Positions 3,083 to 41,702 of a stretch of 64,000 nt of DNA are shown here, piece by piece. How positions within the stretch are numbered: position 1 is the first letter of the stretch; each line of letters begins with the position of its first letter. The stretch comes from Patescibacteria group bacterium (GTDB lineage Bacteria; Patescibacteriota; Microgenomatia; UBA10105; UBA927), in contig JAMCTH010000009.1 of the NCBI GenBank assembly GCA_023379025.1, forward strand, positions 5,092-69,091, in the 5' to 3' direction. The notes beneath the pieces are model-generated. The model did not search any database. It saw only the letters and a program-made list of their open reading frames with translations, and had not been told where the DNA came from. A program made the position numbers and the translations under genes.

Positions 3083-3262
3083 CTGAAACCGGAGACACGT
3101 CTTTTCATGGAAGAAATTGAAGGAAATTGAAGAAAATTCCCGTTCATACTAGAATGGAAAGGGATTTTTATTTTCTGTTGATTTGGATTTGAACACTATA
3201 CCATGCATGTCGGACGTTGAGATTTGGGATTTGAGATTTGGGATTTTTTTATAGTTATCATG

Positions 3263-3814
3263 CCTGCCGGTCAGATCGAGATCAACCTTCTGGGTCATGA
3301 AGACCTTGCCCATACGCCTCAGGGGAGGCTGGTGCTGTGGGCGTTGACCTATGGCCGGTATATCATGATCGGTACGGAAATCGTGGTCCTGCTCGCGTTC
3401 ATCTCCCGCTTCAGTCTGGACCGGAAACTTACGGACCTCAAAGATGAAATCGACCAGAAACAGGCGATTCTGACGGCAAATAAACCCCTGGAAACCGAAA
3501 TTCAGGATGTCGACAGCCGCCTGACTGCCATAAAAAGCCTGACCGCGGGTCAGTCCGCCCCCGTCGACCTCCTGTCGCTTCTTGCCAGCATCCTCCCGAG
3601 CGATGTCCGGCTTAAATCCATCGATATCACGCAAAAAAAACTGAGTGCCAACGTGTTTGCCGGTACGACCCCGGGCTTTTCCCAATTCCTCGTGAACCTT
3701 CAGGCGCTGCAGGCAATCGGAAATATAGAAATCGGAGACATCTCACGGGATCCGGTCAGCGGCATCAGTTTCAGTTTTACCGCGGATATCCGGTCCCGGA
3801 ACCCGGGAACATAA
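3263..3814 (+). CDS. PilN-like type IV pilus/fimbrial assembly protein (start alternatively 3224)
   Basis: IEINLLGHE near the N-terminus resembles the PilN INLLP motif. Single TM followed by a coiled-coil and periplasmic domain. Followed by a PilO-like gene. Confidence 0.55.
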   Translation, partial: PAGQIEINLLGHEDLAHTPQGRLVLWALTYGRYIMIGTEIVVLLAFISRFSLDRKLTDLKDEIDQKQAILTANKPLETEIQDVDSRLTAIKSLTAGQSAPVDLLSLLASILPSDVRLKSIDITQKKLSANVFAGTTPGFSQFLVNLQALQAIGNIEIGDISRDPVSGISFSFTADIRSRNPGT

Positions 3815-6160: not shown

Positions 6161-8584
6161 TTGTTTTCTCGTCATACACATACCATGGCTGACATTCTTG
6201 ACGCTGCTCAGAAACAGGCGACGACCGGCAGTACTGCTCCGGGAGATACTGCCGCACCTCCTTCTCCCCAAAAGAACGAGCCTCCGATACCCAATCTGGA
6301 CGATGTGCTCCCCGGAGCATCCGATCCCGTAGTCGTTCCGGAACAGCCGGAGTCTCTCCAACAGACAGAACCCGGGGATACTGCCGCAAAGGATGCTTCC
6401 CCGATTTCTCCGCCATCGGTTCCTCCAGCGTCATCCGCACCCCTCCCGGAGAAGCAGAAGGACGCTACGCTCCCGGCAGATATGCATGAAAAGCCGGCAG
6501 AAATTTTATCCCCGTCGGAAACCCTTGAAGAACCGCCGCCGCTTACCCCTCCCCCCTCCATGAAAAAGAGGCACGGCCACAGGGGTGTTGTGGTTGCGGC
6601 GCTTCTTTTTCTCCTCCTGACCCTCCCGCTTGCCGTCTATTTCGTTGCGCAGCAACGGCAACTCGCGGAAATCAGAAGTAACGCTTCTGCCCAACCCGGA
6701 GTGTATCCGGGTACTACTCCCGGATCAAATACTATGGAACAACAGAGCTGTTATAACAACTGTTTATATAGCTCAAACGGCAGTCCGACGGGCAATACCC
6801 CGGTTGAGTGTGCATCCTATTGCGGGGGCTATAATACAAACTACGGCACGACCCCTACTCCGTCACCCGTAAGCTGCGCTCCAGGAGAAGTACCATCGAA
6901 ATGTCCAGGGTACAATTTTGATGTATGCCTTAATCAATTTTCCGGCGAATGCCCAGCGCCACCGACCTCTAACTGCCAGCAATGTTTGCAATCAGGCAAT
7001 ACCCCTATTGAATGTGCAAGGTATTGTAATATTGTAGTCAATACACCTCCTCCGCCAACACCCCCGTCCTGCGGATTAGGTGAGACACGCTCAGATTGTC
7101 CTGGATATCCTATGGGCGTCTGTTTGAATAGTTTTTTCGGAGTATGCCCCCAACCTCCCGGTACAACAACAGCAACCACTCCCCCGCCATCTACAAGTTG
7201 TCAGGAGGGACAAATCCAGTGTAATGATACGGGGGGAGTTAACTATTGTTCAAGCGGAAGATGGTGGTCCCGTCCTGCAAATATCGGAGTTGAGTGTCCG
7301 GCAAGCGTAAAAAACTGTGGATTAGGTGAGGTACCTGCAAAATGTCCCGGATATAAGTACGATGTCTGTGTGAATCAATTTTCAGGGGATTGTCCACCTG
7401 CTCCAAAACCGACATGGGTTCCCGGGACTGCGGAGTGTACATCATACTGCGGTCAAGCAGGAAACGATGCATCTCAATGCAATGTTCTCTGTAACCCGAC
7501 AAAACCGCAATACAACTGGAAGCCTGGTGATCCGAACTGCATGCAGGAATGTGTAGCATCCGGAAACGGTGCAAGTGAGTGTCAGAAATATCTCTGCGAT
7601 CCGGCGCATACCACACCAACACCGGCATTTATCCGTGGGACGGCAAACTGCCAACAGCAATGTGTTGCTGCAGGCAATGGGTCGGGAGAATGCACAAGTC
7701 TTTGTGGACCTTTGCCCGTTGGATATATTCAAAATGGCAATCCGTGCGACAATAGCACTCAATGTTCGTCGGGCCTTTGTGAAGGAACGAAAGGAGTCTG
7801 TTGGCCGGTACCTACGATAATGCCGGATACCTGTACCGGACCAAAACCGACGTGCAGCGCCGGCACGGAACCGACCTGCGTTCTCAATTACTGGCACTGC
7901 GCCGTGACATTCGTCACTCCCACTCCTCCTCCGCAGGGTGTAGTACCGCAGGTAAGCCAGAATGGCTGCACCGTAACAAATAACACCGATCAGTCGGTCC
8001 GGGTCTGTGCCTTCAGCGGTGGGTGCGAAGGGGACTTCAGCGGCCGCTGCGGACCAAGCTGGAACCAGATAAACAACGAACAGGGCGGAGCAAAATGCAT
8101 AAACCTTACGGCTCACGGGAATACGAATCTTTGCCAGCCCGCAACGGTCCAGTGCGGTTCCTGGCAGACGGATATATCTATCGCAAATAATCCGGATGGC
8201 ACGGCTGCCGTTGCCGGTATAAACACAAGCGGATGCACCAGCACTCCGCCAGGCGGAGGAAATCCTCCGGGTACCACTCCCCCCGGAGGTAACCCGCCAG
8301 GCACGACCCCGCCGACCGGCGGAGGTCCGCAGTGCACGAATATCAAAATCTATAAAGACGGAGCACAGGTGACTCCCTCAACCCTCCGGCCCGGAGACAA
8401 TATCCTGATAGCCGTAGCCGGAACCGGCGCGACAAAAGCACATATCCGTGTCAACGGCGCAGATTGGATAGAAACGACAACGACCAACAGCAACAACGAA
8501 TTTACGGTGCCGTTCACGATCCCGTCGGGCGTCACGAACTTTACGATAGAAGCGGAAATTTATGTTAGCGGCGTCTGGCAATAA
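6161..8584 (+). CDS. large secreted/membrane-anchored cysteine-rich repeat protein (Pro-rich N-terminal region, TM, 3x CxxGExxxxCPGYxxDVCxNxFxGxCP repeats, 5x CxxxC...GN...EC...C repeats, C-terminal Ig/CBM-like beta domain)
   Basis: Internal repeats are visible in the translation and at DNA level (7070-7152 versus 7316-7398). Cys content is very high. A Gly/Pro/Thr linker precedes the last ~100 aa. Confidence 0.7.
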   Translation: MFSRHTHTMADILDAAQKQATTGSTAPGDTAAPPSPQKNEPPIPNLDDVLPGASDPVVVPEQPESLQQTEPGDTAAKDASPISPPSVPPASSAPLPEKQKDATLPADMHEKPAEILSPSETLEEPPPLTPPPSMKKRHGHRGVVVAALLFLLLTLPLAVYFVAQQRQLAEIRSNASAQPGVYPGTTPGSNTMEQQSCYNNCLYSSNGSPTGNTPVECASYCGGYNTNYGTTPTPSPVSCAPGEVPSKCPGYNFDVCLNQFSGECPAPPTSNCQQCLQSGNTPIECARYCNIVVNTPPPPTPPSCGLGETRSDCPGYPMGVCLNSFFGVCPQPPGTTTATTPPPSTSCQEGQIQCNDTGGVNYCSSGRWWSRPANIGVECPASVKNCGLGEVPAKCPGYKYDVCVNQFSGDCPPAPKPTWVPGTAECTSYCGQAGNDASQCNVLCNPTKPQYNWKPGDPNCMQECVASGNGASECQKYLCDPAHTTPTPAFIRGTANCQQQCVAAGNGSGECTSLCGPLPVGYIQNGNPCDNSTQCSSGLCEGTKGVCWPVPTIMPDTCTGPKPTCSAGTEPTCVLNYWHCAVTFVTPTPPPQGVVPQVSQNGCTVTNNTDQSVRVCAFSGGCEGDFSGRCGPSWNQINNEQGGAKCINLTAHGNTNLCQPATVQCGSWQTDISIANNPDGTAAVAGINTSGCTSTPPGGGNPPGTTPPGGNPPGTTPPTGGGPQCTNIKIYKDGAQVTPSTLRPGDNILIAVAGTGATKAHIRVNGADWIETTTTNSNNEFTVPFTIPSGVTNFTIEAEIYVSGVWQ

Positions 8585-8589
8585 CTCAT

Positions 8590-9093
8590 ATGAAATTCCT
8601 TAAAAAATACTGGCAACTCATGATCGTGACTTTCGTAACGATCGGCCTCGGTGTTGCCGCGTTCTTAACCTCACAGCAGCTCAACAAGCCGACTCCTGTT
8701 GCACCCAACGTGCCGCAGCAGAAGCCAAAAGCCGCGGAGCCTGCCTGTACGCTCGCATTTGCCATCACGACCACGGGAACTCCTACCGAAACACCAACGG
8801 ATACTCCGACACCGACTCCTAATCCGACCGCGACTCCGGTACCGACGGCAACGCCGACACCGACTCCTAATCCGACCGCGACTCCGGTACCGACGGCAAC
8901 GCCGACACCCGGAAGCGGCACCTATAGCACTCCCACTCCGACACCCGGAGGAGTACTCACTTCCGCCGGATCATCACCGACACCCACACCCCCGACCCCC
9001 GAAATCCCCGTATCCGGAACCGGACCGGGTATCCTGGGAGCTGCGGCAATCGGCGGCGGACTCCTTCTTCTCCTTGCAGGTCTTGCCCTCTGA
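8590..9093 (+). CDS. Thr/Pro-rich repeat surface protein with N-terminal TM and C-terminal IPVSG + hydrophobic tail
   Basis: 167 aa. TPTPNPTATPVPTATP is duplicated exactly. The C-terminus is EIPVSGTGPGILGAAAIGGGLLLLLAGLAL. Confidence 0.55.
   Translation: MKFLKKYWQLMIVTFVTIGLGVAAFLTSQQLNKPTPVAPNVPQQKPKAAEPACTLAFAITTTGTPTETPTDTPTPTPNPTATPVPTATPTPTPNPTATPVPTATPTPGSGTYSTPTPTPGGVLTSAGSSPTPTPPTPEIPVSGTGPGILGAAAIGGGLLLLLAGLAL
8809..8904. repeat. perfect 2 x 48 bp direct tandem repeat (acaccgactcctaatccgaccgcgactccggtaccgacggcaacgccg) inside the TP-rich gene
   Basis: Seen directly: 8809-8856 is identical to 8857-8904. In-frame (16 codons each). Confidence 0.9.
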
Positions 9094-9243
9094 CGGGTTT
9101 TGTGACAACCGCCCCCAATAAAACCGTATCAATAGGTCAGAGTGTCAATGTGAATGCCCGTGAATATCCGAAGACATGAGACAGGAAACATGAGACATGG
9201 AAAGCCTTGTGTCAGTACTTCGATGTATCGATATATCGGTGTA

Positions 9244-15249: not shown

Positions 15250-18200
15250 TTACTGCCACGCCTCGCAGATGAGCCGGAAGTCGCAGAAGTCACACTGTTT
15301 TCCGGGTGTCGGGTGAAAATCGCTCCGGGCTATTTCTTCTGCCTTTCCGGCAATCTCGCTTTTTGCGCGGGCGAGCTGCTCGTCGGTTCTTGATGCGGAT
15401 AGTTTCTCCTGACCCTCAAAAAAATAAAACGACACGATGACGTCATCCGGCTTTTTTGCCGCCATGCCCGGACCGGTTGCCGCAAGGGCATAGACGGTGA
15501 GCTGGAAATCATCCGCCGCATCACGGCTTTTCGGAGCATGTCCCGTTTTGTAATCGATAATTTCTATCTTTCCGTCCGGCAGCGGATCTACCCGGTCTAT
15601 TTTCCCCCCGAGAGTGAGAGCCGGCGTAATCTTTATCCTGAACGCCTGTTCAAGCGCCAGGGGGACGCGCTTCGGATCATAGCCGTGATCAAAATAACCG
15701 GCCAGTAATTCCCTTCCCCGGGCTTTCATCTTTTCCTCATATGCCTTATTTCCGTACCCCACCGGTGACCACTGGCGGTCAAACAGCGCCAGAAGCGTAT
15801 CTTTCGTCGGGTGTTGATTGTTTTGCACCAGCCGGTAAAATGCCTCGATGACCCTGTGCATGGTACTGCCGAAAGACAGTGCGGCACGGGGGGGAACGGG
15901 AATTTTCAGAATATAGCGGTACCGGTACTGGAGCGGACAGGTTTTGTACGTTTCAAGCTGCGAATACGACAGATAGGTGACGGCAGCCCGTCCGGTCTCC
16001 TGGTCATCCTCTGTCTGTTTGTCCTTTTCCCATCCGCGGAACGCAAGCTGTAATGCCTCCTGATGCTCTTCCGGCACGGGTTCACGCATGGTCTCGCCAA
16101 GGGCTTCCGCGATAAACGGGGAAAGCTTTTTTTCACGTTTCCCTTCCCCGTAATAGCGTGCCGCCGAAAAATACAGCCGGTCGCGGGCACGCGTCATACC
16201 GACATAAAAGAGCCGGCGCTCTTCTTCAATATGGAAATCGCCGGTCGGAAGGATCTCTTTAATGAGAGGGTCCGGCAACGGTATCTGTTCCTTCCGCCCG
16301 ATCGTCGGAAATCTGGCCGAAACAAGGTTTACGAGAAATACAACCGGGAACTCAAGTCCTTTGGATGAATGTACCGTCAGGATCGTTACCGCGTCATTTG
16401 CCACCCAATCCGTGTCCGCGGCAAGGGGAGATTCGCCGAGCTCGCTTGACAGCTCTATCCAGTCGCTTACGGGATAGACGCCCGCATCATCATGTTCCGC
16501 CTCATAGGTCTTGAGCTTATCGAAAAATTTGGCGATGTTCAGCGCCCTGCGTTCGTCTTTGGCGTTTTTGTAGGAAGCAAGAGTTTTCAGGAGCCCCGTG
16601 TCCTCCAGAAAATAGTAGAGTATCTGCCCTGCACTTTCTTTCTTTATGAGAGCCAGATGCCGGTAGATCATCCGAATGAGCCGCAAGATTTTTTCCGTCC
16701 CGTTCTCCGAAAGCTTCGGCACCGGAACGGTTCCGCTTTTCATCGCGTCACCGGCGGCATCCGGGGGCAGGAGTGTCTCGCAGGCCTCAAAAAGAGACTG
16801 TCCGTAGGTTCTGGCATACTGCATGAGCGCGGCCAGATCCCTGGGGTGGATAGCAAACAGATCCATGGAAAGTACCCGGTACATAGCAACACTATCATCA
16901 GGCGACGTAAGGAGTTTAAGATAGCTTATGAGATCCTTTACTTCCGCCTGCCGGAACAGCTGGCCCGGTCCCAAAAACTGATACGGAATCCCGGCGCGCT
17001 CAAGGGCGCGTGAAAATGGTTCTGCATGACTGTTCGCACGGACAAGGATGGCAAAATCTTTCCAGTCATACCCGCCTTCACGTATCTGATTTTCTGATGT
17101 TTGGTGTTTGATATTTGATATTGCTTGAGCCACCCCCTCAGCTTCATTCTCTACGCGGTCTCTGTACAGTACTTCAATAGGCGAACCGTTTATCCTCCGC
17201 ATGCTTTCGAGTTTTTTATCTATCCGTTCGGCAATCTCCAGGCGGTCCGGGTTATTCTGCTGGATAAGCGCATAGGAACGGTTAAGGATTTCTTGTGTGG
17301 AACGGTAATTTTTGGTAAGGACAACGATCTTCGCCCTGGGAAAGCGCTTCCGGAACTGGATGATGTTGCTTATTGCCGCACCCCGCCAGCGGTAAATTGC
17401 CTGATCGTCATCACCGACCACGGTAAGGTTTTTCTTCTTGCCTGCCAGAAGGACAGCCAGTTCATTCTGGGCAAAATTGGTATCCTGGAATTCATCGATG
17501 AGAATGTAACGGAACTGGTCCTGATACCGCTTTAAAATATTTTTTCTCGTACGAAAAAGTTTCAACGTATTACTTATCAGGTCTGCGTAATCCGCCACTC
17601 CTTCTTTCACTTTTAGTTCTTCGTATGTCCTATATGCCCGCGCAAGTTCGAAATATTTTTCACCTTCTTCGTTTCTCCCCTCTGTCATCGCGAGACCGTT
17701 CTTACGGCGTGGCGATCTCTTATTTATTTGAGATTGCTTCGCTTCGCTCGCAATGACAGACGTAAATATATGGTCTTTCACCCATCCTAAGTATTGCTCT
17801 GGTGTGATATCTTCGTCCTTAAGTCTGCTAAAATGCTGCAGCATTCCTGCAATAAATTTAGTTGGATTGCCGAGCGGGCGGAAATAGGAAAGATCAAAGG
17901 AAAACAGGTGTCTACGGAAAAACTGTATGGTTTCCGCTTCGGTCATGAGACGGTATCCGGGATCGTAGCCGATATTGATCGCCTCTGCCCGAAGTATACG
18001 GTCGCAAAATGCATGGAACGTGGATATCCACATGTCGGGTAGCCCATACGGAAGGAGCATATCGATGCGTTCTTCCATCTCACGGCTCGCTTTTTCTGTA
18101 AAAGTAAGGGCGAGAATCCCGTCCGGTCGGACGGATTTTTTTGTTATGAGGTGGGCGATGCGTTCTGTGACAACGGTTGTTTTTCCGGTCCCGGCTCCCG

Positions 18201-18288
18201 CGATGACAAGAAGCGGCCCTTCACCAAAGCCGATTGCACGTTTTTGTTCAGCATTGAGGGTATACCGGTGCTTATTCTCGGTCTTCAT
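15250..18288 (-). CDS. UvrD-type helicase fused to C-terminal PD-(D/E)XK nuclease with Cas4/AddB-type 4Cys Fe-S cluster (AddA-like single-chain helicase-nuclease)
   Basis: 1012 aa. N-terminal AGAGTGKTTVVTERI, TFTEKASREM and ILIDEFQDTN motifs. C-terminal ...IEIIDYKTG (nuclease core). Cys pattern C...(CDFCDFRLIC) equals Cx2Cx5C at the extreme C-terminus with an upstream Cys (TCPLQY). Confidence 0.8.
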   Translation of the reverse strand: MKTENKHRYTLNAEQKRAIGFGEGPLLVIAGAGTGKTTVVTERIAHLITKKSVRPDGILALTFTEKASREMEERIDMLLPYGLPDMWISTFHAFCDRILRAEAINIGYDPGYRLMTEAETIQFFRRHLFSFDLSYFRPLGNPTKFIAGMLQHFSRLKDEDITPEQYLGWVKDHIFTSVIASEAKQSQINKRSPRRKNGLAMTEGRNEEGEKYFELARAYRTYEELKVKEGVADYADLISNTLKLFRTRKNILKRYQDQFRYILIDEFQDTNFAQNELAVLLAGKKKNLTVVGDDDQAIYRWRGAAISNIIQFRKRFPRAKIVVLTKNYRSTQEILNRSYALIQQNNPDRLEIAERIDKKLESMRRINGSPIEVLYRDRVENEAEGVAQAISNIKHQTSENQIREGGYDWKDFAILVRANSHAEPFSRALERAGIPYQFLGPGQLFRQAEVKDLISYLKLLTSPDDSVAMYRVLSMDLFAIHPRDLAALMQYARTYGQSLFEACETLLPPDAAGDAMKSGTVPVPKLSENGTEKILRLIRMIYRHLALIKKESAGQILYYFLEDTGLLKTLASYKNAKDERRALNIAKFFDKLKTYEAEHDDAGVYPVSDWIELSSELGESPLAADTDWVANDAVTILTVHSSKGLEFPVVFLVNLVSARFPTIGRKEQIPLPDPLIKEILPTGDFHIEEERRLFYVGMTRARDRLYFSAARYYGEGKREKKLSPFIAEALGETMREPVPEEHQEALQLAFRGWEKDKQTEDDQETGRAAVTYLSYSQLETYKTCPLQYRYRYILKIPVPPRAALSFGSTMHRVIEAFYRLVQNNQHPTKDTLLALFDRQWSPVGYGNKAYEEKMKARGRELLAGYFDHGYDPKRVPLALEQAFRIKITPALTLGGKIDRVDPLPDGKIEIIDYKTGHAPKSRDAADDFQLTVYALAATGPGMAAKKPDDVIVSFYFFEGQEKLSASRTDEQLARAKSEIAGKAEEIARSDFHPTPGKQCDFCDFRLICEAWQ

Positions 18289-33693: not shown

Positions 33694-35412
<1,719 letters not shown>

Positions 35413-40449: not shown

Positions 40450-41595
40450 ATGGACATCCTGGCTATTGAAACATCCTGTGACGAAACTGCGGCGGCGGTA
40501 GTGAGAGACGGAACGATGGTGCGCTCGAGTTGCGTAGCCTCCTCAACCGCCATGCATGAAAAATACGGCGGCATTGTCCCGGAAGTTGCCGCGCGGGAAC
40601 AACTCCGTTGCATTCTTCCTGTCATTCAGGAAGTTCTCTCTTTTTTCCATCAATGTGACAATGTGACAATGAAACAATGCATTTCAAATCATATTGATGC
40701 CATCGCTGTCACCGTCGGCCCCGGACTCATTGGGAGTCTTCTTATCGGTGTGGAAGCGGCAAAAACCATGGCCATGATCACCGGTAAACCGGTTATTCCG
40801 GTCAATCATGTTCTGGCGCACATGTATGCAAATTTTGTCCGGGACAGACAAAACGGAAAATCACAAATCACAAATCACAATGACCAAACAATGAAACAAT
40901 GTAACAATGAAACAATTCAATTCCCTGCTATTTCTCTTGTCGTTTCCGGCGGTCATACGGAACTATATCTCATGAAATCAGAAAAAAGTCTCCGGTGGCT
41001 CGGAGGGACGCTGGATGATGCGGCCGGCGAATGTTTTGATAAAACGGCACGACTCCTCGGGTTTGGCAACCGGGGCGGACCGGCAATACAGGAAGCAGCA
41101 GAAAAATGCCAAATACCAAATATCACATACCAAAGTACATTGCCCAGGCCAATGATAGGAGAAGATTCAGTAAATTTTTCGTTCAGCGGACTCAAGGCTG
41201 CTGTGGTACGTGAGGTAAACAGCCTGAAAGAAAAACAACAATGTAACAATATAACAGTGAAACAATTATCTTCCGAGATCCAGGAGGCCATCACTGACGT
41301 GCTGGTCAATAAAACCATGAGAGCGGCACAAAAGTATAACGCAAAATCTATCTTGATTTCCGGCGGCGTTGCCGCCAATCTGCGCCTCCGGGATAAATTT
41401 GCTTCAGCAATTCAACAATGTGGCAATGTACCAGTTGAGCATAGACCAGCTCTACGGATACTGCTTTATGTCCCGCCAATAAGCTTATGTACGGACAATG
41501 CCGTCTATATCGCCTCCTATGCGTATTTCCGGGGAAAACCGGTCCCATGGAATAACATTACGGCAAAACCCGATCTCTCCGTGGAAGTTCGGTAA
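40450..41595 (+). CDS. tsaD: tRNA N6-threonylcarbamoyladenosine synthase TsaD (Kae1/YgjD family) carrying four in-frame repeat insertions
   Basis: ILAIETSCDETAAAV, VSGGHTELYL, DDAAGECFDKTARLLG, FSFSGLK, CTDNA. It is 381 aa versus about 340 typical. Confidence 0.85.
   Translation: MDILAIETSCDETAAAVVRDGTMVRSSCVASSTAMHEKYGGIVPEVAAREQLRCILPVIQEVLSFFHQCDNVTMKQCISNHIDAIAVTVGPGLIGSLLIGVEAAKTMAMITGKPVIPVNHVLAHMYANFVRDRQNGKSQITNHNDQTMKQCNNETIQFPAISLVVSGGHTELYLMKSEKSLRWLGGTLDDAAGECFDKTARLLGFGNRGGPAIQEAAEKCQIPNITYQSTLPRPMIGEDSVNFSFSGLKAAVVREVNSLKEKQQCNNITVKQLSSEIQEAITDVLVNKTMRAAQKYNAKSILISGGVAANLRLRDKFASAIQQCGNVPVEHRPALRILLYVPPISLCTDNAVYIASYAYFRGKPVPWNNITAKPDLSVEVR
40651..40680. repeat. CAATG-rich repeat copy 1 within tsaD (caatgtgacaatgtgacaatgaaacaatgc)
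   Basis: Seen in sequence. Encodes the extra QCDNVTMKQC loop. Confidence 0.7.
40861..40920. repeat. CAATG-rich repeat copy 2 within tsaD (tcacaaatcacaaatcacaatgaccaaacaatgaaacaatgtaacaatgaaacaattcaa)
   Basis: Seen in sequence. Encodes the extra SQITNHNDQTMKQCNNETIQ loop. Confidence 0.7.
41236..41267. repeat. CAATG-rich repeat copy 3 within tsaD
   Basis: caacaatgtaacaatataacagtgaaacaatt; encodes QQCNNITVKQL. Confidence 0.65.
41414..41433. repeat. CAATG-rich repeat copy 4 within tsaD
   Basis: caacaatgtggcaatgtacc; encodes QQCGNVP. Confidence 0.55.
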
Positions 41596-41702
41596 TGGCC
41601 GGCTTGCCGCAATACACCAAGCCCGATACAATAGGAGCGTACCGGGAAGCGTGCTGCCGGAGGAGAAACTTGCGCAGATTACCCGGAGCCCCTGTCTGCT
41701 TT

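Follow-up and report, generated by a model that had tools for sequence, protein, structure and literature searches.

Tandem repeats of seven and eight nucleotides in loop-coding segments of tsaD in a Patescibacteria genome and its relatives

Background

Rickettsia palindromic elements (RPE) are in-frame insertions in protein genes of Rickettsia, made of palindromic units of 100-150 nt with conserved ends. The proteins of the Kae1/Qri7/TsaD family have lineage-specific insertions, which are stable, structured and lineage-defining. Here we describe extra loops in TsaD encoded by a 64,000-nt stretch of the genome of a Patescibacteria group bacterium (assembly GCA_023379025.1, contig JAMCTH010000009.1, positions 5,092 to 69,091 of the forward strand), the whole of which is referred to below as the window. 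The tsaD gene contains, in frame, short tandem arrays of 7- or 8-nt units, and similar arrays occur in the same loops of tsaD genes from other members of the candidate phyla radiation (CPR). These arrays are probably translated filler produced by slippage rather than a mobile element.

The likeness to RPE lies in the addition of extra peptides to surface loops of functional housekeeping proteins, and some CPR orthologues do carry an in-frame palindromic element. The insertions in the window, however, are direct tandem repeats of 23-31 nt, neither palindromic nor dispersed in the window. Compared with the insertions of the Kae1/Qri7/TsaD family, the ASKHA core is equally conserved and the lengths of the loops again vary by lineage, but the loops of CPR TsaD consist visibly of DNA repeats and appear to be subject to turnover even among close relatives.

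Heptamers are the commonest long simple sequence repeats (SSRs) in prokaryotes, and have been attributed to polymerase slippage (Mrazek 2007, via PMC4679880 and PMC4692102). The rule given for long SSRs (5-11 nt) in these two sources is that non-triplet units are mostly intergenic, while coding units are multiples of three. The tsaD arrays resemble such SSRs in their head-to-tail units of 7-8 nt, the dominance of heptamers and slippage as the accepted origin, but they are translated, lie inside an essential gene and cluster in a single gene family. In genome-wide heptamer families, such as the cyanobacterial short tandemly repeated repetitive (STRR) sequences, TAACTGA of Beggiatoaceae and the GGGAATC-type repeats of Xanthomonas and Nostoc, one unit is present at hundreds of loci, mostly intergenic or near gene ends (PMC4679880, PMC4692102). 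Arrays of about four units, a 7-nt unit preferred by the lineage, occasional location in open reading frames (ORFs) and an unknown mechanism of spread are common to these families and tsaD, whereas in tsaD the units vary by lineage, have no other copy in the 64-kb window and lie in mid-gene loops. Contingency loci contain phase-variable SSRs, for example the CAAT tetranucleotide tracts of H. influenzae (PMC2651432), which are likewise non-triplet coding repeats where a slip of one unit would switch the frame. Those tracts are long, perfect and polymorphic and reside in surface or restriction-modification genes, while the tsaD arrays are short (3-4.4 units, three of them imperfect) instead of long and homogeneous, and belong to an essential housekeeping gene.

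Taken singly, SSRs, repeats inserted in frame and loop variation in Kae1/TsaD are all known. No description of TsaD repeats in CPR was found in the literature searched, and what appears to be new is that translated non-triplet arrays are restricted to five loops of a single essential gene and recur across CPR lineages, at about 19 times the background of the surrounding DNA. Non-triplet microsatellites have been thought to be barred from the interior of essential genes, and the universal, essential TsaD has them across many CPR lineages.

Repeat arrays in the loops of TsaD

The identification of the ORF as TsaD (TIGR03723 / PF00814), proposed in an earlier note made from the sequence alone, was confirmed by its profile score against TIGR03723 (332.6 bits, cut-off 296.1; protein residues 3-361 aligned to profile positions 1-312 of 314) and by its match to the solved TsaD chains in PDB (E=1e-63). 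The model of the protein produced with AlphaFold2 (AF2) has a predicted local distance difference test score (pLDDT) of 85, and its best Foldseek matches are TsaD chains, with E-values down to 1.6e-28 and target-normalised template modelling (TM) scores of 0.85-0.89. The protein is identical to MCL4360296.1 of NCBI, from a metagenome-assembled genome of Patescibacteria (CPR). It possesses both the HxxxH plus Asp metal site and the two-lobe ASKHA fold, and the metal-binding residues H120, H124 and D349 fall in columns that are invariant in 28 CPR orthologues. Judging from sequence and model, the enzyme core looks intact and functional, and synthesis of N6-threonylcarbamoyladenosine (t6A), of whose transferase TsaD is a subunit, is predicted with TsaB and TsaE as partners.

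Alignment to the TsaD of T. maritima revealed five extra segments, at about aa 66-76, 132-152, 221-224, 259-264 and 325-335 (sites 1 to 5), one more than the four loops counted in the earlier note. In the AF2 model they correspond to loops 67-73, 133-159, 219-240, 262-266 and 326-337, each a surface loop placed between secondary-structure elements. All are in frame and stop-free, and leave the protein intact.

Five arrays inside tsaD were reported by Tandem Repeats Finder (TRF), which was used for array detection. Altogether, the loop insertions comprise three clear octamer arrays and a weak one (CAATGNNA), and two heptamer arrays, AAATCAC and AAATACC (Table 1). The arrays have approximately 3-5 units and a length of 23-31 nt each, and three are imperfect. 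The proposal that all insertions are reiterations of a CAATG-rich motif therefore applies to sites 1 and 4, to the 3' half of site 2 and, weakly, to site 5, but not to the 5' half of site 2 or to site 3, where the insertion of about 4 aa comes from the AAATACC heptamers. Eight of the nine CAAT units at the four CAATG sites are of the 'G' flavour, and over 38 nt the array of site 4 is 84% and that of site 1 about 82% identical to the array of site 2.

Table 1. Coordinates of the tsaD gene, its repeat arrays and related elements. Positions refer to the window or, where an L number is given, to a tsaD locus of a relative.
Feature	Position	Strand	Remarks
tsaD ORF, intact, 381 aa	40450..41595	+	ORF list, profile, PDB match, model
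Site 1, octamer array CAATGTGA x3.6	40651..40679	+	encodes QCDNVTMKQC (aa 68-77); self-lag score 16
Site 2, 5' half, perfect heptamer array AAATCAC x3.3	40858..40880	+	encodes KSQITNHN
Site 2, 3' half, octamer array AAACAATG x3.9	40886..40916	+	encodes QTMKQCNNETI; self-lag score 18; P=3.5e-4
Site 3, imperfect heptamer array AAATACC x4.4	41104..41134	+	encodes KCQIPNITYQS; 79% matches (TRF)
Site 4, imperfect octamer array AACAATGT x3.8	41237..41266	+	encodes QQCNNITVKQL; P=6e-4
Site 5, weak octamer array CAATTCAA CAATGTGG CAATGTAC, then rest of loop AIQQCGNVPVEHRPA	41408..41460	+	
Heptamer array TATTTGA x5.6 (TCAAATA-type)	17083..17122	-	encodes ISNIKHQTSENQI; TRF; self-lag score 13.5
Octamer arrays (TCAAGAAC)n in aminoacyl-tRNA synthetase gene, distant clade	L187/L193/L194 ~6917-6955; L191 6156-6194; L188 6788-6821, 7301-7336		give QELKNSRTQELK
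Inverted pair of ACAAT-octamer arrays	L001 9457-9525		gap between VanW and cytidylyltransferase-like genes, ~500 bp upstream of tsaD
Double-hairpin element	L002 1024-1095; L141 ~921 and ~1279-1345; L143, L144, L145, L151, L123 at site 2		

Some of the arrays are not limited to the loops. The site 1 peptide lies mostly in the modelled loop of aa 67-73, between helices 44-66 and 74-81, and extends into the start of the second helix; the 3' array of site 2 continues into the conserved TIQFPA codons; and the 3' half of the site 4 array serves as the codons for the start of helix 267-295. Since they enter flanking helices and conserved codons, the arrays overlap native coding sequence and are not clean foreign inserts. 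At site 2, residues 138-148 have pLDDT below 50 and are modelled as a disordered loop, and site 5 coincides with an 11-residue gap in T. maritima TsaD.

Periodicity at the DNA level

In order to separate periodicity of the DNA from that of the peptide, synonymous codons were redrawn from the codon usage of the window while the peptide was kept. Matches at lag 8 or lag 7 exceeded this null in five arrays, with P from 5e-5 to 8e-4. At site 1, 19 of 22 positions matched at lag 8 (12.3 under randomisation, P=3.5e-4); at lag 7, the 5' half of site 2 gave 16 of 17 (P=8e-4) and site 3 gave 19 of 26 (11.2 expected, P=5e-5). Throughout the six array segments tested, CAA is the sole codon for Gln and ACA the sole codon for Thr, although these codons account for only 31% and 18%, respectively, of the usage in the window. 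The periodicity resides in the DNA, not in the peptide. Because the unit length of 7 or 8 is not a multiple of three, translation passes through all three phases within each array, and about three units make up one peptide period of 7 or 8 residues, for example QCDNVTMK followed by a renewed QC.

The motif CAATGWRACAATG, with at most one mismatch allowed, was found 8 times, always in tsaD, against 0.35 expected, and 8 matches were reached in none of 100 shuffles. A self-lag scan of the window, run with a mismatch penalty of -1.5 (a penalty of -3 missed imperfect arrays), detected 8 arrays against 0.03 in Markov-2 nulls; five of the arrays have period 7 or 8, three of them lying in tsaD, one in an ORF for an AddA-like helicase and one at 3217-3246. 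A mere coincidence of codon choice, which the earlier note had itself named as an outcome that would undo its reading, is contradicted by these counts, and only the octamer part of site 5 (41408-41431, P=0.06), not significant when taken alone, would accord with it. As for an assembly artefact, run SRR10278331 was assembled independently in Logan, and that sequence shows no difference from the window in 3,146 bp around tsaD. Presence of the same sequence in two assemblies makes an artefact unlikely, and such arrays are seen in dozens of independent metagenome assemblies. Chance and artefact can therefore practically be dismissed as explanations.

A function of the N-x-T sequons, one of which is found in each CAATG peptide, was also considered and rejected: the sequon is a by-product of AAT-NNN-ACA, and TsaD is a cytoplasmic protein.

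Arrays in tsaD genes of CPR relatives

For comparison, 80 tsaD loci were fetched from metagenomes; 65 distinct genes were aligned, and arrays were counted on 64 of them (L133 was left out). The genes had been chosen as ORFs spanning both TsaD motifs, a selection that frameshifted alleles would escape. CPR homologues of 55-68% identity to the TsaD of the window are 336 to 443 aa long and vary at exactly the five sites. Words such as TIQQFNN, TMKQCNN and QQFNNxTIQQ are found repeatedly in these proteins, at as many as four of the sites. On the other hand, several orthologues whose core identity to the window is 71-76% (the highest seen was 76.5%) lack insertions altogether and have 318-322 aa. 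Insertions such as these were considered unusual in the earlier note; among CPR TsaD, which range from 318 to 443 aa, they are in fact common, but they are very unusual when set against the neighbouring genes.

The self-lag scan found at least one array in 33 of the 64 genes. All 52 arrays detected in tsaD are located in the same five loops, 49 having a period of 7 or 8 and 34 consisting of heptamers. Sites 2 and 4 also bear arrays in members of a distant clade of the CPR, at 41-49% identity to the window. In the main clade, tsaD contains 42 arrays in 52.9 kb (0.79 per kb) and its flanks 10 in 236.8 kb (0.042 per kb), i.e. the density in tsaD is about 19 times that of the flanking DNA. The arrays of the flanks are nearly all intergenic, although 95% of the flank bases belong to ORFs of at least 100 aa.

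The repeat units differ between lineages at one and the same site. At site 3 they are AAGTTCA, GCATCCC, GTATCAC, CAAATAG, TTGAAAA, AATTCAC, AAGTTTA or AAAAGTC, depending on the lineage, and the units found at site 5 of relatives include TTCAACA, AATTCTC and CAACCATC. This variation argues against the insertion of a single sequence. Moreover, the units of one array change in step. Comparison of L170 with L171 (86% core identity) shows AAGTTCA replaced by TCATTCA in every inner unit, and that of L199 with L186 (90% core identity) shows AAAAACTC replaced by AAGAACTC in every unit. The 3' segment of site 2 in L002 is about 90% identical to that of the window at the DNA level, against a core identity of 76% for the amino acid sequences.

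Palindromic elements and a possible dispersed family

The earlier note compared the insertions with RPE, and a lineage-specific family of dispersed short repeats, or a small mobile element, could indeed seed arrays at many loci, in-frame sites of tsaD included. Several observations are in line with such seeding. The CAATG flavour and the high identity over 38 nt are shared by separate sites of the tsaD gene of the window, while other flavours are found in orthologues. Arrays of the CAAT type are present in intergenic DNA near tsaD in three lineages (L001, L123 and L124/125); in L001 they form an inverted pair that, by its sequence, could fold into a long hairpin. In the distant clade the octamer AAGAACTC is the unit of tsaD site 2 in L186 and also occurs, in frame, in the adjacent aminoacyl-tRNA synthetase (aaRS) gene of related genomes.

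In addition, the same loops accept a real palindromic element. This GC-rich double hairpin, TCATTCCCGC..GCGGGAAT followed by GGATCCCCGATC..GGGGATGAC, is inserted in frame at sites 2 and 4 of tsaD in many CPR orthologues. It is similar to miniature inverted-repeat transposable elements (MITE), has near-inverted ends (GTCATTCCCG...CGGGGATGAC), is found in both orientations and is translated into peptides of the VIPAKAGIQ and WIPDQVRDDK types. Hairpin matches numbered 23 in 74 kb of tsaD and 3 in 382 kb of flanks, corresponding to a density about 40 times higher in tsaD. A palindromic insert at site 2 distinguishes L159 from L167 and L170, despite core identities of 96-98%, and L170 has at site 1 a 27-nt hairpin that is absent in L167. 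As such near-identical relatives differ in their inserts, the tsaD loops must gain and lose material quickly.

However, the 64-kb window lacks the palindromic element, and a search for the CAATG motif (CAATGWRACAATG) beyond tsaD returned no copy in the remaining 62.8 kb. Neither inverted repeats or arms nor terminal repeats were found within or flanking the tsaD arrays, which are direct repeats and overlap native conserved codons. No family for the arrays was found in Rfam, a match to a scaRNA being far below threshold (16.5 bits against a gathering score of 65). The variation of units between lineages at one site also speaks against a family with a common unit. An RPE-like mobile element thus finds no support in this gene, and the seeding of arrays by dispersed or mobile repeats, although some of the observations favour it, is on the whole unlikely.

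The wide occurrence of ACAAT octamers provides no evidence of a family, since control scans show that A/T-rich pentamers repeated every 8 nt are frequent in large collections, whichever pentamer is taken. Four tandem copies of ACAATNNN gave at least 120 matches in genome contigs, with many phyla represented, and the control pentamers AACTA and ATACA, at the same spacing, were abundant in viral contigs, which makes the wide occurrence uninformative.

Origin of the arrays

The tsaD arrays comprise at least three short units arranged head to tail, in excess over chance, as is characteristic of microsatellites. Taken together, the periodicity at the DNA level, lineage-specific units, concerted change of units, overlap with native codons and the absence of inverted repeats, dispersed copies and an Rfam family point to slippage, which the earlier note had offered as its alternative and which fits the data better. 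We consider it probable that the insertions in the window are non-triplet microsatellites which originated by slippage, have had their units homogenised, and are translated in loops permissive enough to tolerate them.

The arrays probably arose from short direct repeats already present in the coding sequence around them, which served as seeds for slippage during replication or for tandem duplication on a small scale; candidate seeds are ACAATTCAACAATT (TIQQL) and TTCAACATTCA (FNIH). Their periodicity would then be upheld by continued slippage or by conversion between units, which probably acts also between the four CAATG sites of the gene. Persistence would be favoured by loops that accept almost any hydrophilic filler. 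Only arrays that are free of stop codons and lengthen the gene by a multiple of three bases survive.

Several findings weigh against an origin of this kind. A slip of one unit shifts the frame, and therefore steps of three units or compensating events are needed; because of this cost, it is hard to see why arrays should be so frequent in an essential gene. Passive tolerance, too, leaves the difference in array density between tsaD and its flanks unexplained. Finally, the almost uniform 'G' flavour at four sites of the window (A or T being found at the same site elsewhere), the octamer unit that one genome of the distant clade has in tsaD and its relatives have in the neighbouring aaRS gene, and the CAAT-type arrays between genes near tsaD suggest exchange between loci or a dispersed family and not purely local birth. 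Shared ancestry and tolerance may still be enough to account for tsaD as a hotspot.

If passive tolerance is the explanation, the arrays provide a natural map of the permissive loops of TsaD and demonstrate that DNA repeats create variation of loop length in reduced genomes. For annotation purposes, peptides of the QQFNN/TMKQCNN and KYQI/FNIH types in CPR proteins are to be regarded as repeat-derived.

Possible selected function and self-buffering

The arrays might instead have a selected function, either as loops of tunable length that alter contacts with partners or tRNA, or as slippery, phase-neutral stretches tying the synthesis of TsaD to translational fidelity. The enrichment of arrays in tsaD, from which other coding sequence is essentially free, their presence in two deep CPR clades and the preservation of the site 2 array at the DNA level between the window and L002 are compatible with selection. 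The variant involving fidelity is also consistent with reports that t6A prevents frameshifting, +1 frameshifting having increased by a factor of 2-3 in an A-AUU context when t6A was depleted (PMC3561968, PMC8887486). On this variant, tsaD alleles that are out of frame would be leaky and not null, and tolerance of non-triplet slippage would be peculiar to tsaD. However, the units are not conserved, and many orthologues at 71-76% core identity are free of insertions, so no specific sequence or loop is required. Nor are arrays exclusive to tsaD, genes for an aaRS and a helicase containing them as well. Every tsaD recovered is in frame, though out-of-frame alleles would have been missed by the ORF-based selection. 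Richness in ANN codons is a property of the arrays of the window but not of those of relatives, e.g. GCATCCC. We regard a selected function as quite improbable.

A feedback of ANN-rich arrays on t6A was tried as a general explanation of the arrays and discarded, as neither GCATCCC nor CAACCATC of the relatives is ANN-rich.

As a long shot, we propose that tsaD is a self-buffering sink for non-triplet repeats. As loss of t6A raises ribosomal +1 frameshifting, an allele put out of frame by a slip of one unit, or by insertion of a hairpin in a phase-neutral array, may still yield some enzyme, and such a leaky allele may survive until a second event restores the frame. If true, this would account for the fact that translated arrays of 7-8-nt units, as well as palindromic elements, accumulate in tsaD but hardly anywhere else. 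The same pattern is predicted for tsaB, tsaC, tsaE and trmD. Among these, tsaB, tsaC and tsaE were found neither in the window nor in the fetched loci of relatives, and the window contains no trmD and, apart from tsaD, no gene of the t6A pathway; a search for tsaB-like genes aimed at this prediction matched only tsaD itself. Should the specificity for tsaD prove to be causal, a gene of translational fidelity would be linked to its own mutational robustness.

Gene neighbourhood and other repeats of the window

The gene order is VanW, cytidylyltransferase-like gene, tsaD and a class-I aaRS gene. The TAA of tsaD shares one base with the ATG of the aaRS gene, which encodes 811 aa (TAATG, 41593-41597), suggesting translational coupling of the two genes.

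Outside tsaD, the only other coding array of period 7 or 8 in the window is the heptamer array TATTTGA, which lies in frame in a 1012-aa ORF (15250-18288) assigned to an AddA-like helicase-nuclease by its UvrD and PD-(D/E)XK domains in Pfam. The heptamer array at 3217-3246 (TTGAGAT x4.3) is situated at the 5' edge of ORF 3224-3814, inside a longer reading frame of the reverse strand, and a third one, AGACATG x4 at 9172-9203, occupies an intergenic gap.

Longer units were observed as well. A perfect 48-bp tandem repeat (x2.2, 8806-8909) encodes a Pro/Thr-rich linker in ORF 8590-9093. The region 20000-24000 has a GC content of 44-45%, compared with about 53% in the window. Several small ORFs without a Pfam match are located there, as is the 5' portion of the MetRS gene (22604), and this stretch may represent foreign DNA. 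A 9-bp repeat of the CCATTCCGC type (33702-33739, reverse strand) at the 3' end of the GroEL gene (33694-35367) encodes the usual Gly-Gly-Met tail and is an ordinary feature.

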